Origin: Candidatus Saccharimonadota bacterium
GTDB lineage: Bacteria > Patescibacteriota > Saccharimonadia > Saccharimonadales > Saccharimonadaceae
DNA: 64,000 nt
Assembly: GCA_027312225.1 (NCBI GenBank)
Contig: DAICXK010000001.1
Location: 63,148 to 127,147 of the forward strand
Direction: 5' to 3'
Part shown: in pieces, positions 6,913-41,944 of the stretch
Numbering within the stretch: the stretch's first letter is position 1
Layout of the letters: each line of letters opens with the position of its first letter
Position numbers and translations under genes: made by a program
The notes under the pieces: model-generated
The model's database searches: none
Seen by the model: the letters and a program-made list of their open reading frames with translations, nothing else
What the model was told of the DNA's origin: nothing

Positions 6913-6939
6913 AAAAATATCGCCTATTTTCGGCGATAT
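6913..6939 (-). terminator. Intrinsic terminator after tig
   Basis: 8-bp stem ATATCGCC/GGCGATAT (6917-6924 with 6932-6939) and a 7-nt loop, followed by a U-run on the minus strand. Confidence 0.7.
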
Positions 6940-8288: not shown

Positions 8289-9569
8289 TTAAGCGACTTG
8301 GCGCTCCTCGCCTGTAGTAAGATTCTTGGCCTTGTACTCGCCGCTTTCAATTTCGTTAGCACCGACAAAGACAATCTCGGTCGCGCCTTTCTTCTCGGCC
8401 ATCTTGATAAGCTTGTCAAATTTTCGGCCTGTCGTGTCCGTCTCGACCGATATACCACGAGACCGCAGGGTCGCCGCTAGCTGCAAGGTCTGCAGCACTG
8501 TATCACCCACCGATGCCACGTACATATCAACAGTAGCTCGAAGGTCCGGCAAGAGGTTGTGACTACGAAGGAACAGCTCGGTTGTCGTAAGGCCTGGAGC
8601 AAAACCAACCGCGCTGACTGGCTCGACACCAAACATACCAACTAGCCCGTCGTAGCGGCCACCACCAAATAGCGAGCGGTTGTTCTCGGGGTCCACATCA
8701 AAGACCTCAAAGACCGTCCCGGTATAATAATCAAGCCCTCGCATGAGCGTCACGTCAAAACGCACCGACGAGACGCCAAGACTACTAAGCATCACAAACA
8801 ATTCGCGCACACGGCCAGCCGCTGCTCCACCCGCAAGTCCCTCAGGGAGCGTCTCGATTGACTCCGCAGAAAATACTGCTTCAAGCCTCGCAACTTTTTC
8901 ATCCGTCTCAAGAATCTCGCGGACCGATGCCACAAACACCTCGGCAGGCAGTTTGTTTTTGCGGTCGATCAGCCGTACAAGCTGACCGGCCTGGACCTCA
9001 TCAAGCCCCAGGTATTGCCGTGTCATCTCTTCGATCAGCTCGCGGCTATTGACACGAATTTCATACATATTAGTACTTGCCCCGAAGGCTTTCATAATCT
9101 CGTCAGCCAGCAGCAACGTCTCGGCTTCGGCCGCCACGTCGTCCGCACCAAACGTATCAACATTGAGTTGCCAGAACTCACGTTCACGTCCACGTTGTGG
9201 CCGTTCGTAACGCATGAAGTTTGCAATGCTATACAGCCTGGCTGGATACGGCAGCTCTTGGCGCCTTGCAGCCACCATACGGCTAACCGTTGGTGTCATC
9301 TCGGGCCGAATTGCCACTGTGCGGTCACCACGATCCGTAAATGCGTATGTCTGCTCCCCAGCCAGCTCGTCACCACTTTTAGCGGCATACACTTCGAGTG
9401 GCTCGAGAAGCGGCGCGCCATATTCTTTGAATCCAAATTGTTCGACTGTTTTCTTCCAGGTTGCAAAGATATAGTTCTGAACAGCCTTATCTTCAGGATA
9501 CCAGTCGCGTGTGCCTTTATATGGTTGGGGGGATAGCGTAGTCATTGGTGTTATTGTATCATTTTTCAT
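8289..9569 (-). CDS. hisS: Histidine--tRNA ligase
   Basis: 426-aa class II aaRS with HisRS blocks (YKGTRDWYP, AIRPEMTPTVSR, YERPQRGREREFWQLNVD, GGGRYDGL). SD GGAGA lies 7 nt upstream of the ATG. Confidence 0.95.
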   Translation of the reverse strand: MKNDTITPMTTLSPQPYKGTRDWYPEDKAVQNYIFATWKKTVEQFGFKEYGAPLLEPLEVYAAKSGDELAGEQTYAFTDRGDRTVAIRPEMTPTVSRMVAARRQELPYPARLYSIANFMRYERPQRGREREFWQLNVDTFGADDVAAEAETLLLADEIMKAFGASTNMYEIRVNSRELIEEMTRQYLGLDEVQAGQLVRLIDRKNKLPAEVFVASVREILETDEKVARLEAVFSAESIETLPEGLAGGAAAGRVRELFVMLSSLGVSSVRFDVTLMRGLDYYTGTVFEVFDVDPENNRSLFGGGRYDGLVGMFGVEPVSAVGFAPGLTTTELFLRSHNLLPDLRATVDMYVASVGDTVLQTLQLAATLRSRGISVETDTTGRKFDKLIKMAEKKGATEIVFVGANEIESGEYKAKNLTTGEERQVA

Positions 9570-9592
9570 TTGTATTCTCCGTTAGTTAATAG

Positions 9593-9618
9593 AATAAAAC
9601 GCCGAAACGAGTTCGGCG
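9593..9618 (-). terminator. Intrinsic terminator inside the hisS leader (candidate attenuator)
   Basis: Minus-strand RNA CGCCGAA-CUCGU-UUCGGCG (7-bp stem, 9600-9618) followed by UUUUAUU (9593-9599). Ends 23 nt before the hisS ATG and lies downstream of a promoter. Confidence 0.7.
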
Positions 9619-9641
9619 TGCATTCTAGACTATCAAGAAGA

Positions 9642-9695
9642 TTACCGGACTCGGTTCGGCGACAGATGTGAATGATGAATCACAAAAGTAATCAT
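9642..9695 (-). CDS. Candidate leader peptide MITFVIHHSHLSPNRVR (three His codons)
   Basis: ATG ATT ACT TTT GTG ATT CAT CAT TCA CAT CTG TCG CCG AAC CGA GTC CGG TAA. The ATG lies 6 nt after a TACAAT -10 box, the spacing used by real leaderless genes here. The last codons form the antiterminator strand. Confidence 0.5.
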   Translation of the reverse strand: MITFVIHHSHLSPNRVR

Positions 9696-9701
9696 ATCTT
9701 T

Positions 9702-9710
9702 ATTGTAGCA
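9702..9710 (-). promoter_or_regulatory. Extended -10 promoter TGCTACAAT of the hisS leader
   Basis: Identical 9-mer to the gatC promoter at 54875-54883. 6 nt to the mini-ORF ATG. Confidence 0.6.
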
Positions 9711-9915
9711 TATTTTCATCAAAAAGTCTATGTACCGTTCATCCGAAAGCTTAACTCCTCGCTCTCGATTGCAGCACTGTACATATTTCCAACGTACCGT
9801 TGATCGGGTGGTAGGTCTTTACCCGCAGGATGGTTGATTCCCAGGGTTGACCGCAAACTTGCAACCACGTCACGCAACATCACTTCATTTCGTAGTATCT
9901 CAGATGGGGCTATAT

Positions 9916-10443
9916 CTAGCGCGTCAAGACATTTCGGCGCACCCATTCATAGAGGATAATACCGCTTGCCACCCCGACATTGACCGATCGGGTGCTGCCG
10001 AATTGTGGAATTGCAACCATAGATTGGCTCGCGGCAATCATTTCAGGGCTGAGGCCCGGTCCTTCGCCGCCAAACACTACTACACAGTCCCGTGGCAACT
10101 CTGCATCAGGCAGGCTTACCGCGCCAGGTTGATTGTCAATCGCAATAATGCGTCGCTCGCCCATTGCCGTGACAAATTCCTCGATTGTCGCATGATAATA
10201 AACGTGGAGGTATTTGTCCGTTGCCATCGCCCCGCGCTTGTTCCATTGACGACGGCCGATAACATGCACCGCCGCCACGTTGAACGCGTTAGCATTACGC
10301 ACGATCGTTCCCATATTAAAGTCTCTCGTCAAGTTTTCGACCGCAATCTCAAGGGCATGACGTGACCTATCGAGGTCTACGATGATGTCCTCTTCACTCC
10401 AGCCCTTATACTTGTCAACGACGTTTCTGGTGTCCTGTTGCAT
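9916..10443 (-). CDS. SpoU/TrmH-family RNA 2'-O-methyltransferase
   Basis: 175-aa ORF with SPOUT motifs (NMGTIVRNANAF, VFGGEGPGLS, IPQFGSTRSVNVGVASGIILYE). Confidence 0.8.
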   Translation of the reverse strand: MQQDTRNVVDKYKGWSEEDIIVDLDRSRHALEIAVENLTRDFNMGTIVRNANAFNVAAVHVIGRRQWNKRGAMATDKYLHVYYHATIEEFVTAMGERRIIAIDNQPGAVSLPDAELPRDCVVVFGGEGPGLSPEMIAASQSMVAIPQFGSTRSVNVGVASGIILYEWVRRNVLTR

Positions 10444-10449
10444 AGTTCC

Positions 10450-10459
10450 ATTGTAAACT
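10450..10459. promoter_or_regulatory. Overlapping divergent -10 boxes in a 22-bp intergenic spacer
   Basis: Minus strand: TACAAT (10450-10455), then 6 nt to ATG 10443. Plus strand: TAAACT (10454-10459), then 6 nt to ATG 10466. Confidence 0.5.
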
Positions 10460-10465
10460 AAGTGT

Positions 10466-11047
10466 ATGAAACTCTTGTCTGATCAAATCGACGAGCGCGA
10501 GCTAGCAATCATTTTGCGCGAGCTAGAGAAGACATTGATGGCAGACATCAAAGGTGACGTTGTTGAATTTGGCTGCTACGTTGGCACGACGAGCGTCCCT
10601 GTCGGCAAACGGTTAATGTCAACCGATAAAAAGCTGTTTGTCTACGACTCGTTCGAGGGCCTACCCGAGAAAACACATCAAGACGAAAGTCCCACAGGAA
10701 CACAATTTGTAGCCGGCGAACTAACTGCTAGCAAAAAACAACTAATCAAGAACTTCAAACAAGCTGGTGTGCCGTTGCCTATTATCACAAAAGAATGGTT
10801 CTCTAATGTTACGCCAGACCAGATACCAGAAACGATCGCCTTTGCGTTCCTTGATGGTGATTATTATCGCTCTGTCCTTGACTCACTAAGACTCATATGG
10901 AATCGTTTGTCGCCAGAAGCAGTCATTATTATCGATGATTACGCAAACGAAGCTCTGCCAGGCGCAGCTAAAGCCACTGACGAATGGCTGCGTAAGCATC
11001 CGGCTACAATACGTATTGAACATTCACTCGCAATTATCTCAAGGTAA
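10466..11047 (+). CDS. TylF/MycF-like class I SAM-dependent O-methyltransferase
   Basis: 193-aa ORF with GDVVEFGCYVGTTS (SAM-binding loop), FVYDSFEGLPE, LDGDYY and IIIDDY. This pattern is typical of the macrocin-O-methyltransferase family. Confidence 0.6.
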   Translation: MKLLSDQIDERELAIILRELEKTLMADIKGDVVEFGCYVGTTSVPVGKRLMSTDKKLFVYDSFEGLPEKTHQDESPTGTQFVAGELTASKKQLIKNFKQAGVPLPIITKEWFSNVTPDQIPETIAFAFLDGDYYRSVLDSLRLIWNRLSPEAVIIIDDYANEALPGAAKATDEWLRKHPATIRIEHSLAIISR

Positions 11048-17169: not shown

Positions 17170-17172
17170 AAA

Positions 17173-17198
17173 AACAAGACCAAGATGGTCTTGTTTTT
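17173..17198 (+). terminator. Intrinsic terminator (usable in both directions)
   Basis: AACAAGACC-AAGAT-GGTCTTGTT stem, followed by a T-run and preceded by an A-run. Sits between the 16750 gene and tRNA-Leu. Confidence 0.8.
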
Positions 17199-20480: not shown

Positions 20481-20495
20481 CCTCTCACTGAGAGG
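20481..20495. terminator. Short hairpin between convergent genes (possible bidirectional terminator)
   Basis: CCTCT-CACTG-AGAGG flanked by an A-run and TTATTT. Only about 5 bp. Confidence 0.4.
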
Positions 20496-35790: not shown

Positions 35791-35819
35791 AGTATATATA
35801 AAACTAGCACTCTCGTCAA
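35791..35819 (-). promoter_or_regulatory. clpC promoter TTGACG-N17-TATACT
   Basis: Minus strand: TTGACG (35814-35819) lies within the CIRCE spacer and TATACT at 35791-35796. Same layout as at clpP. Confidence 0.55.
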
Positions 35820-35830
35820 TAGAGTGCTAG
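35804..35830. promoter_or_regulatory. CIRCE-type inverted repeat upstream of clpC (also the hairpin following nusA)
   Basis: CTAGCACTC-TCGTCAATA-GAGTGCTAG versus the consensus TTAGCACTC-N9-GAGTGCTAA. Flanked by A/T runs. Confidence 0.8.
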
Positions 35831-35850
35831 TTTTTGTCTTTTCTCGGAAA

Positions 35851-41919: not shown

Positions 41920-41944
41920 AAAAGCACCCTGAGAGGGTGCTTTT
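41920..41944 (-). terminator. Intrinsic terminator after the 41963-42598 gene
   Basis: GCACCC-TGAGA-GGGTGC stem flanked by an A-run and a T-run (bidirectional shape). Confidence 0.7.

Follow-up and report, generated by a model that had tools for sequence, protein, structure and literature searches.

The leader described here lies on the minus strand of a 64,000-nt stretch of a Saccharibacteria contig (the whole stretch analysed, hereafter the window), upstream of a hisS gene whose product is 100% identical to the HisS of Ca. Saccharibacteria bacterium 32-50-13. The features of the locus, in window coordinates and in the direction of transcription, are:

9725..9730, minus strand: -35-like hexamer of a predicted promoter, P1 (TAGACT), found by consensus scan; it overlaps the stop codon of an upstream ORF remnant
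9702..9710, minus strand: extended -10 of P1, TGCTACAAT (hexamer 9707-9702), from sequence and consensus scan
9642..9695, minus strand: leader ORF of leaderless type, 17 codons plus TAA, MITFVIHHSHLSPNRVR; kept family-wide
9666..9677, minus strand: putative regulatory His codons, all CAT (His7 9677-9675, His8 9674-9672, His10 9668-9666)
9655..9661, minus strand: region 1, CGCCGAA, codons 12-14; same sequence as the terminator 5' arm
9645..9653, minus strand: region 2, CGAGUCCGG, codons 15-17; putative antiterminator strand, with the terminator 5' arm and loop as its partner
9619..9641, minus strand: post-stop spacer, pyrimidine/U-rich in the family
9593..9618, minus strand: intrinsic terminator (5' arm 9618-9612, loop 9611-9607, 3' arm 9606-9600, U-tract 9599-9593)
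9567..9580, minus strand: Shine-Dalgarno (SD) sequence GGAG (9580-9577) and upstream hisS start ATG (9569-9567), conserved in the window clade
9543..9561, minus strand: predicted internal promoter P2, a conserved motif consisting of an extended -10, TGATACAAT (9561-9553), 7 nt, and the ATG of Met9 (9545-9543)
8289..9569, minus strand: hisS, histidine--tRNA ligase, 426 aa, the presumed regulated gene (Pfam tRNA-synt_His and HGTP_anticodon)

By consensus scan, P1 reads TAGACT-17-TACAAT with the TG present, and 6 nt separate its extended -10 (9710-9702) from the leader ATG at 9695. The ORF that opens there reads ATG ATT ACT TTT GTG ATT CAT CAT TCA CAT CTG TCG CCG AAC CGA GTC CGG TAA. The terminator hairpin, CGCCGAA-CTCGT-TTCGGCG (9618-9600), is followed by TTTTATT (9599-9593); it was also called by consensus scan (8-bp stem, five G-C pairs), and its U-tract ends 23 nt before the hisS ATG (9569). 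The original prediction had quoted the -10, ORF, His codons, hairpin, U-tract and 23-nt gap, and all of them proved correct base for base on the minus strand. The fold of the 131-nt leader also beats 200/200 dinucleotide shuffles (z = -3.06).

A 72-aa ORF upstream (9728-9946, minus strand) was rejected as a real gene bounding the leader, having no Pfam match and being absent in locus L002. We take it to be a truncated remnant, because it matches just the C-terminus of a gene of about 210 aa found at five other loci (L162, L167, L168, L171 and L172). Elsewhere in the window there are 18 strong intrinsic terminators, and 13 of the 48 long ORFs have leaderless-type starts, compared with 2.4% of internal ATGs, which bears out the claim that the -10, six nucleotides and ATG recur in the same arrangement at real genes of the window. 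With both terminators and leaderless-type starts apparently in use, an attenuator is plausible in this genome. No other unit of promoter, mini-ORF and terminator in the window had amino-acid-biased codons.

Homologous leaders occur in at least 36 distinct Saccharibacteria sequences, amounting to around 20% of 160 HisS-seeded loci, and all of these distinct leaders lie upstream of, and co-oriented with, hisS on Saccharibacteria contigs. The family was gathered with an nhmmer profile; a strict regular expression missed the window clade and several variants. A profile built from distant relatives only (HisS at most 63% identical) matches the window end to end at 9697-9594 with E = 8e-15, its only significant match in the 64 kb. 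A second, weak nhmmer match at 52428-52408 (E = 0.17) was treated as noise. About 24 distinct members, most of the family, stand directly before hisS. Where genes lie between leader and hisS, they include hisG, hisD and hisI; by Pfam, the leader precedes HisG and then hisS in L008, L028 and L063, and HisG-HisD-HisI and then hisS in L044. In L001 (80% HisS identity), it lies 720 nt upstream, ahead of an inserted APH/kinase-like gene.

Across this family the leader ORF carries a clear coding signature. A -10 box is found 6 nt before the leader start in 22 of 32 distinct members using a strict TAnnnT pattern, and in about 28 of 32 if near-consensus hexamers are allowed; of the 32 distinct ORFs, 31 begin with ATG and the remaining one with GTG. 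In-frame stops number 0/290, against 18/580 in the other frames (p = 7e-4), and in-frame CAY (His) triplets outnumber those out of frame by 85 to 12 (p = 4e-32). His10 is invariant and always CAT (32/32), and nearly all of the 36 or more members have a second His at codon 7 and/or 8, shifting between these two codons while His10 stays fixed (L138, L163). The distance from the ATG to His10 is 27 nt, or else 24 or 33 nt, with all N-terminal indels being multiples of three; the sequence of the leader's 5' third varies greatly, but its length modulo 3 does not. Within the family, CAT/CAC variation is synonymous, and the ORFs of the window and L002 differ only at synonymous or third positions. Both the His codons and the reading frame are therefore conserved in relatives, as the original prediction would have it. 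Together, these patterns strongly, if indirectly, imply that the leader ORF is translated, and the conserved spacing of -10, six nucleotides and ATG suggests that it is leaderless, with transcription starting at the start codon itself.

The stop codon is less constant, falling after codon 11, 13, 14 or 17, and the RNA beyond it stays conserved. In five members with early stops (L016, L092, L109, L086 and L089), the RNA of regions 1 and 2 is kept all the same, which fits an RNA-level role for these regions. A peptide-level function of the leader C-terminus (..SPERVG) is unlikely, since the early stops remove it in these five members and the RNA is conserved.

Two helices of the leader covary. 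The terminator helix, formed by region 3 (5' arm and loop) and region 4 (3' arm), is paired in 93.4% of cells, with compensatory changes at 6 of 7 pairs, a score reached by 0/500 shuffles and a partner-swap p of 5e-5; the G+C-rich hairpin with its immediate U-tract is present in every member. For the antiterminator helix (2:3), the partner-swap test gave -10.95 for matched and -8.41 for mismatched partners (p = 5e-5), and there were 15 compensatory cells where 6.7 +/- 2.0 were expected, again with 0/500 shuffles reaching the score. Partner-swap controls gave p = 0.36-0.95. Clear compensatory cases are CAAG/CUUG in L001, CUUG/CAAG in L013 and UCA/UGA in L165. Covariation was assessed by these alignment-free tests and a compact alignment (A2) instead of by RNAalifold on the MAFFT alignment (A1), which recovered only 1:4 and had misaligned loop columns. 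The compensatory changes anticipated for both helices are thus present, and they support the terminator and a true antiterminator, in which the last ORF codons would pair with the terminator 5' arm and loop.

Region 1 has two possible partners, the terminator 3' arm (1:4) and, in a weak pairing, region 2 (1:2). For 1:4, 93% of cells are paired, with no covariation in swap test or pair counts, and in L063 region 1 and both terminator arms are altered together. The 1:2 hairpin has a mean of -4.1 kcal/mol. The post-stop spacer is 61% T, against a background of 26%, and its first 7 nt are 79-100% pyrimidine in 29 distinct members; the U-rich spacer and the 1:2 hairpin are a candidate RNA polymerase pause signal.

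The original interpretation of this locus as an attenuator is supported, and we put the probability at about three in four that the leader works as a histidine-specific attenuator of transcription, mediated by the ribosome and built on the classical four-region plan, though very compact and leaderless. P1 would start the transcript at the first base of the leader ATG (9695), and a 70S ribosome would load directly on the 5' end and read the 17 codons. Of these, the last six would supply region 1 (CGCCGAA) and region 2 (CGAGUCCGG), and the downstream hairpin regions 3 and 4, followed by the U-tract. When His-tRNA(His) is plentiful, the ribosome would reach the stop codon and cover regions 1 and 2, the 3:4 terminator would form, and a transcript of about 100 nt would end at 9599-9593. 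If the ribosome has gone, or never loaded, regions 1 and 2 would pair with 4 and 3 in one long helix that presumably also terminates, an analogue of superattenuation. Should low histidine or low HisRS activity make charged tRNA(His) scarce, the ribosome would pause where the His10 CAU occupies the A site, with its front edge over region 1 and region 2 left free. Region 2 could then capture the emerging terminator 5' arm and loop (2:3), leaving region 4 unpaired, and RNA polymerase would read into hisS, whose translation would begin at the SD-led ATG (9569). In genomes with other gene arrangements, read-through would enter hisG, or hisG-hisD-hisI, and then hisS.

We modelled these ribosome positions by constraint folding of 27 members, using trimmed arms and avoiding stems running into the U-tract. 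A ribosome placed at the stop codon lets the terminator form in 27/27, in line with the original prediction. Placing His10 in the A site instead opens the stem base and forms 2:3 in 24/27 members for a footprint edge of +12, 18/27 for +14 and 14/27 for +15, an outcome that depends on footprint and kinetic assumptions. At +15 the terminator is the minimum free energy structure in 13/27, so read-through would need the kinetic argument that 2:3 forms first; mean energies over the 27 members are -12.2 kcal/mol for 2:3 and -10.0 kcal/mol for the 3:4 core. The original prediction had instead taken the whole 17-nt strand (9661-9645) as antiterminator and expected read-through once it was free. Its pairing at 15/17 positions across the hairpin was reproduced (RNAduplex, -26.1 kcal/mol compared with -11.0 kcal/mol for the hairpin alone), but a wholly free strand pairs with both terminator arms (the minimum free energy structure in the window, and in roughly 20 of 27 members) and should terminate, because the resulting long helix still ends at the U-tract. 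What survives is the region 2 half, which in these folds opens the stem base when it is free and CGCCGAA is masked. His7 and His8 are reached before His10, and a ribosome stalled there would leave region 1 unmasked; the long helix then closes at the U-tract in about 20/27 by equilibrium folding, and for this reason the His10-centred model needs steric hindrance or kinetics.

hisS need not depend on read-through, given P2. Its motif (TGnnAnAAT, 5-8 nt, in-frame ATG) occurs at 27/41 leader loci and 64/120 other loci, directly before the conserved HisS N-terminus and downstream of the attenuator, and many HisS homologs begin at Met9. We infer that P2 is a conserved leaderless hisS promoter, and that, lying within the first hisS codons, it probably keeps this essential gene expressed at a basal level. 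Because this second conserved promoter lies downstream, the attenuator probably modulates hisS expression rather than gating it. If these are the promoters, the ATG at 9569 can be used only by transcripts that start at P1 and read through the terminator.

A complete promoter and a strong terminator bounding a short transcript, together with a conserved P2 directly before the HisS N-terminus, could also mark an independent small transcription unit, producing an sRNA of about 100 nt and/or the mRNA of a 17-aa micropeptide, with hisS expressed from P2 alone. Freed attenuator RNAs can act in trans in other bacteria, as in the case of rnTrpL (PMC6614838). Yet the unit always stands upstream of and co-oriented with hisS, with histidine biosynthesis genes among those in between, and it is the His codons that are conserved and not the peptide, whose N-terminus is hypervariable and whose C-terminus is lost to early stops. 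A simple terminated sRNA would also have no need of the 2:3 covariation, and in the window clade an SD-led hisS start is conserved upstream of the P2 start site. We consider this explanation unlikely, although a trans role of the leader RNA could be additional to attenuation.

We rate lower still a structured leader that is not translated, switched by a ligand in the manner of a riboswitch or by a bound protein or tRNA, with the ORF being incidental. The conservation of regions 1 and 2 past early stops would suit it, as would a His10 that is always CAT, implying constraint beyond the amino acid, and hisS in Firmicutes is under T-box control (PMC2965389). However, the leader matched no Rfam family, the T-box (RF00230) and His_leader (RF00514) included; the search returned only sub-threshold noise such as Hrs12 (E = 0.16), essentially the terminator. 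Even at a cutoff of E <= 10, His_leader matched neither the window leader nor L044, and no locus out of 17 reached its gathering score. These searches rule out a T-box or another known RNA family, and agree with the original observation that T-box features are absent. At about 100 nt the leader is short, and it has a hypervariable 5' third and no Stem-I-like domain. An untranslated leader also leaves unexplained an ATG at the predicted +1, indels that keep the frame, a frame 0 free of stops, the shift of His between codons 7 and 8, and a 5' third whose length alone is held, modulo 3.

The gene contexts allow a further, highly improbable explanation, namely that an ancestral his-operon attenuator was stranded at hisS after loss of the biosynthetic genes and now performs no useful regulation. 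Some relatives have the leader before hisG(-hisD-hisI)-hisS, but in the window it stands before just hisS, for which P2 could be enough, and some copies are decayed: L088 is degenerate and L171 retains His10 alone. As about 80% of sampled Saccharibacteria hisS loci are without a leader, these copies indicate that it is dispensable and sometimes decays. Such a relic would not be expected to show the selection seen here. Leader identity is 73-93% between genomes in which the four-fold degenerate sites of hisS are 33-41% identical, i.e. saturated. Changes within the window clade are of synonymous type in the ORF and G-C to G-U in the helices, with pairing kept, and on this comparison strong purifying selection is maintaining the ORF with its His codons, the two helices and the SD-led start in the clade. 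That most members stand directly before hisS argues in the same direction.

Scarcely credible, finally, is control at the level of translation, with stalling on the leaderless sORF exposing a downstream ribosome binding site (RBS) rather than causing antitermination. Leaderless sORF attenuators acting on RBS accessibility do have experimental precedent in mycobacteria (10.1101/834739). Here, though, the conserved hairpin is G+C-rich and always runs straight into a U-tract, as intrinsic terminators characteristically do; the centroid fold leaves the hisS SD (9580-9577), 12 nt past the U-tract, unpaired; and several relatives have P2, or another gene's SD some distance away, after the hairpin.

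The leader can be compared with several known systems. Like enterobacterial hisL (RF00514), it has a short ORF whose His codons would sense His-tRNA charging, alternative 1:2, 2:3 and 3:4 helices and an intrinsic terminator, and hisL controls histidine genes, as the leader of L044 presumably does in preceding hisG-hisD-hisI. The two share no sequence or Rfam similarity; hisL has seven His codons in a row, compared with 1-3 (one invariant) here, and is SD-led and about 150-180 nt long, whereas this leader is of leaderless type, about 100 nt long and usually found before hisS, with regions 1 and 4 able to stack on its 2:3 helix. The leader would be a functional analogue of His_leader and is not a member of that family. 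In E. coli, the pheST operon, which encodes an aminoacyl-tRNA synthetase, is attenuated through a leader peptide (pheM) rich in cognate codons. It shares with the leader proposed here a synthetase gene under a cognate-codon leader peptide with feedback via the charging level, but involves another amino acid and an SD-led peptide, belongs to Proteobacteria, and shows no homology.

Closer in target is a His leader peptide predicted in 2010 in Bacillus, ahead of hisZ and a hisS paralog (PMC2965389), likewise a His-codon ORF and premature terminator before a hisS-family gene. That leader, from Firmicutes, carries its His codons in a stretch, has not been reported to be leaderless and is unrelated in sequence, and it regulates a paralog and hisZ where the Saccharibacteria leader precedes the sole hisS. 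The Firmicutes hisS T-box shares the gene, the signal (tRNA-His charging) and a terminator/antiterminator output, but senses uncharged tRNA directly, without translation, in a leader of about 200 nt or more. Leaderless leader ORFs also have precedents as amino-acid attenuators. In Corynebacterium (PMC11857589; Morbach 2000, as cited in PMC4046766), the C. glutamicum ilvBNC leader peptide has no RBS and attenuates transcription via alternative hairpins; it differs in its branched-chain codons, actinobacterial host, biosynthetic operon and three-hairpin model, with a 5' hairpin that blocks initiation. The mycobacterial polycysteine sORFs are leaderless short ORFs at operon 5' ends that sense an amino acid by stalling, and that differ in their tracts of Cys codons and in acting on translation through RBS sequestration instead of through an intrinsic terminator (10.1101/834739).

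These precedents narrow the novelty originally claimed. [quoted passage not shown] The leader is apparently undescribed for the phylum, but it is not a new principle, as each ingredient has a precedent.

A more far-reaching interpretation is possible but doubtful. It would make this the first amino-acid-sensing cis-regulatory circuit documented in CPR, an ancestral his-operon leader kept by obligate epibionts after the loss of histidine biosynthesis and tuning HisRS to host-supplied histidine, as a three-state switch in which only a ribosome at the CAU of His10 opens the terminator, masking region 1 with region 2 bound to the terminator 5' arm. If so, naked and fully translated leaders would both terminate, the sensor would be a single invariant, wobble-decoded CAU 5 nt upstream of a 7-nt element, and the leader would supply Patescibacteria genetics with a compact switch, native to the group, for inducible expression. 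For Saccharibacteria and the wider CPR, whose gene regulation has scarcely been described, the leader family suggests that reduced-genome epibionts retain the classical logic of transcription-translation coupling, and that Saccharibacteria apparently monitor tRNA-His charging, and with it the supply of an amino acid that most of them cannot make. At about 100 nt and with one invariant sensor codon, the leader may also serve as an unusually small natural model of how the place of the ribosome decides between alternative folds of leaderless mRNAs, and as a candidate native regulatory part for the Patescibacteria genetic tools now in development. Standing before hisG-hisD-hisI-hisS, hisG-hisS or hisS alone, it could further act as a marker for loss of the his pathway.

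Re-reading the minus strand across 9593-9730 gave an exact match to the sequence in the original prediction, which had proposed a histidine-responsive attenuator ahead of hisS. The leader and the hisS start comprise the following parts.

9710-9702, minus: extended -10 element TGCTACAAT of P1, the mini-ORF promoter, followed by six bases and then the ATG at 9695
9695-9642, minus: mini-ORF of 18 triplets including TAA (9644-9642), product MITFVIHHSHLSPNRVR
9661-9655, minus: region 1, CGCCGAA
9653-9645, minus: region 2, CGAGUCCGG
9618-9600, minus: terminator hairpin CGCCGAA-CTCGT-TTCGGCG (region 3, 5' arm and loop; region 4, 3' arm)
9599-9593, minus: U-tract TTTTATT, directly after the hairpin and 23 nt before the hisS ATG (9569)
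9580-9577, minus: hisS Shine-Dalgarno sequence GGAG
9561-9553, minus: predicted promoter P2, TGATACAAT, followed by AACACCA and the ATG of Met9 (9545-9543)

A consensus scan called both the terminator and P1 (TAGACT-17-TACAAT with TG). The folded leader was more stable than 200/200 shuffles (z = -3.06), and in both its MFE and centroid structures 9661-9645 pairs with the hairpin over its full length; this duplex reaches -26.1 kcal/mol, vs -11.0 for the hairpin alone (RNAduplex). Both ingredients of the proposal are native to this organism, as the window contains 18 strong hairpin/U-tract terminators, several of them bidirectional at convergent gene ends, and leaderless-type starts at 13/48 long ORFs (vs 2.4% of internal ATGs). 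Palindromic hairpins with T-runs on both strands lie at 6917-6939, 17170-17198, 20481-20495, 35802-35832 and 41922-41942. All five are intrinsic terminators of the bidirectional type, located where genes converge or adjoining tRNA-Leu, and they show that hairpin/U-tract termination is regularly used in the genome.

To investigate how widespread the leader is, we gathered two unbiased HisS-seeded samples of 80 contigs each, the first from genomes and the second from metagenomes, and added twelve further contigs of intermediate relatives. In the first sample 18-19 loci carry the leader and in the second 13-14, both lower bounds given the limited flank length. Counting the window and the intermediate relatives, there are at least 36 distinct leader sequences. 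All matches lie upstream of hisS on the same strand, in loci that were all gathered around hisS; the stretch searched in full was the 64-kb window, which has one copy. An independent profile, made from distant members alone (HisS at most 63% identical), recovers the window element end to end (E = 8e-15), with no other significant match in the window. Leader identity is 73-93% in comparisons of genomes where hisS four-fold degenerate sites have reached saturation (33-41% identity). A search of Rfam 15 matched no family to it, neither His_leader nor T-box. Two copies are decaying: in one (L088, ~1384-1460) the His codons and the frame are gone and region 2 and the terminator remain, and another (L171, 2861-2960) has only His10 left, with CGC at codon 8 and a stop after codon 14.

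Several features imply that the mini-ORF is translated. It starts with ATG in 31/32 distinct ORFs (GTG in 1/32), and a -10 box, often TG-extended, lies 6 nt before the start in 22/32 by strict match and ~28/32 by relaxed match. Frame 0 holds no stops in 290 codons, vs 18/580 in the other frames (p = 7e-4), and CAY triplets occur 85 times in frame vs 12 out of frame (p = 4e-32). There are four length variants, differing by 3 or 6 nt. Codons 2-6 are hypervariable, and the differences between the window and L002 ORFs are ACT>ACC, TTT>TTC, CTG>TTG, TAA>TAG and ATT>ATG. Histidine at position 10 is invariant. The second histidine sits at codon 8, codon 7 (alone in L138 and L163) or both, a shift that is a property of codons rather than of fixed nucleotides. 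His7 and His8 are CAT or CAC. His10, by comparison, is CAT in 32/32 distinct leaders (9666-9668, minus strand, in the window), vs 42 CAT and 11 CAC among the remaining leader His codons and five of each in three window genes. Its third position is constrained beyond coding, possibly by a preference for a wobble-decoded codon or by an unrecognised RNA contact. The final codons, in contrast, are conserved at the RNA level: in five members the stop falls after codon 11, 13 or 14, with the sequence beyond it still conserved.

We compared the duplex energy of each segment with its own partner and with partners from other members (24 distinct members, 20,000 permutations). Matched partners paired better for 3:4 (-12.7 vs -10.4 kcal/mol), for 2:3 (-10.95 vs -8.41) and for region 2 with the loop alone (-3.78 vs -2.40), each with p = 5e-5. 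The 1:4 helix gave -9.30 vs -9.34 kcal/mol (p = 0.57), and two negative controls gave p = 0.36 and 0.95. Counting pairs on a compact alignment gave the same picture. For 3:4, 93.4% of cells are paired and 6/7 pairs show compensatory change; for 2:3, 80.6% are paired in one fixed register, with 15 compensatory cells vs 6.7 +/- 2.0. No shuffle reached either score (0/500 each). For 1:4, 93.1% of cells are paired, with almost no variation to test and uninformative shuffles. Compensations include CGAG/CUCG in the window, CAAG/CUUG in L001, CUUG/CAAG in L013 and UCA/UGA in L165; in L063, region 1 and both terminator arms are altered together. A further small hairpin forms between regions 1 and 2 (mean -4.1 kcal/mol), and the tract after it (post-stop; 9619-9641, minus strand, in the window) is 61% T vs a background of 26%. 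The arrangement is reminiscent of the 1:2 pause hairpin in classical attenuators, and we infer a candidate RNA-polymerase pause signal. The post-stop tract is itself conserved and U/pyrimidine-rich, with consensus TAGTTTTCTTTT.

It had been proposed that a free antiterminator strand suffices for read-through. This is not enough. Because region 1 is identical to the terminator 5' arm, a free strand of regions 1 and 2 pairs with the two arms in one long helix, which is the MFE structure of the window leader, abuts the U-tract and should itself terminate. In constraint folding, it closes at the U-tract in ~20/27 members whether the RNA is naked or a ribosome sits at His8, and a ribosome at the stop codon leaves the 3:4 terminator in 27/27. 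With His10 in the A site, the stem base is open and 2:3 formed in 24/27, 18/27 or 14/27 members with the footprint edge at +12, +14 or +15, an outcome sensitive to that assumed edge. On average, 2:3 has an energy of -12.2 kcal/mol and the 3:4 core one of -10.0. In members where thermodynamics favours the terminator, the usual argument from kinetics would apply, since 2:3 forms before region 4 exists.

These foldings are consistent with a three-state switch, in which read-through would occur only with region 1 masked and region 2 free. Such a switch would explain why region 1 is conserved and lies a fixed 5 nt from His10, why different stop-codon positions are tolerated and why L171 retains His10 alone. 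It does not account for the frequent retention of His7 and His8, as a ribosome stalled at either of them should leave region 1 unmasked. Hypothetically, a ribosome only 1-4 nt away may sterically keep the 1:4 stem out of the RNA-polymerase exit channel. From sequence and modelling, we put at about 0.75 the probability that the leader is a His-tRNA-sensing, ribosome-mediated transcription attenuator; the specific model of region 1 masking by a ribosome at His10 seems to us about an even bet.

The leader lies directly before hisS in ~24 distinct members. Elsewhere, other genes lie between the two.

L008 (2517-2948), L028 (288-842), L063 (2468-2968): HisG
L044 (730-3015): HisG, histidinol dehydrogenase (HisD) and PRA-cyclohydrolase (HisI)
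L001 (2388-3011), L167: APH/kinase-like protein
L026 (2264-2962): M15 dipeptidase
L066 (1245-3010): unknown protein and S66 peptidase (LD-carboxypeptidase)
L076 (523-2984): HAD protein and nucleoside hydrolase
L092 (321-1462), L170 (1943-3001): unknown 170-200-aa protein and SLOG/LOG-like protein, a pair seen in two lineages

The histidine genes behind the leader tie its His codons to function, and the non-his genes, which are inserted recurrently, may have histidine-salvage or peptide-scavenging functions co-regulated with hisS. The HisG is the short form, alone or as HisG-HisD-HisI, immediately upstream of hisS. Short HisG normally depends on HisZ, a HisRS paralog. Its place beside HisS is curious, as these genomes are thought to lack histidine biosynthesis.

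Most Saccharibacteria hisS loci also carry the predicted P2, with or without the leader and just ahead of the conserved HisS N-terminus. After its motif TGnnAnAAT come 7 nt and then an in-frame ATG, or else a short SD leader, and TTGCAA often lies 14 nt upstream; the conserved form in most of the loci compared (L001-L172) is cTTGCAA-N14-TGnnAnAAT-N7-ATG, or TGATACAAT with a short SD leader. The conserved N-terminal 'extension' residues (..ENATITPM, KNDTITPM) would then really reflect promoter conservation. In loci without the leader, even the P2 -35/-10 spacer TAAACAGATAAAAATG is conserved across highly divergent genomes, a hint of an operator. The annotated hisS start (9569) and its SD lie upstream of the predicted P2 start site, and this start would therefore be usable only on P1 read-through transcripts. 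Basal hisS expression likely comes from P2, with a histidine-starvation boost from P1.

The hisS leader shares its logic with the trp, his and pheST attenuators. Supposedly novel aspects of the original prediction have precedents: a histidine leader peptide is predicted before a hisS paralog and hisZ in Bacillus (PMC2965389), the leader peptide of the C. glutamicum ilvBNC attenuator is leaderless (PMC11857589; Morbach 2000, as cited in PMC4046766), and mycobacterial polycysteine sORF attenuators are leaderless and act on translation (10.1101/834739). In the literature searched, we found no report of such an attenuator for Saccharibacteria, Patescibacteria or CPR, and we file the hisS leader as a new family of a known kind. 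It stands out for its predicted leaderless start, its length of ~100 nt, its one invariant candidate sensor codon, the stacking of 1:4 on 2:3 and the predicted internal second promoter.

The window HisS is 100% identical to a protein of 'Candidatus Saccharibacteria bacterium 32-50-13', and the neighbours of hisS are a SpoU-type methylase on its upstream side and trigger factor on its downstream side. A 72-aa ORF between SpoU and the leader (9728-9946, minus strand) was considered as an intact gene and rejected. It has no Pfam match and aligns only with the C-terminal end (..EELSFRMNGT) of a ~210-aa protein whose function is unknown; L162, L167, L168, L171 and L172 still carry the gene for this protein at the corresponding place, between SpoU and the leader. 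The 72-aa ORF is apparently what a deletion has left, or a pseudogene. It overlaps the end of the SpoU gene, and its stop codon overlaps the P1 -35 hexamer. The SpoU methylase and a TylF-like methyltransferase are divergent, with starts 22 nt apart (10443-10466) and a -10 box 6 nt ahead of each ATG (TTTACAATGGAACT-ATG on one strand, TGTAAACTAAGTGT-ATG on the other), apparently overlapping back-to-back leaderless promoters.
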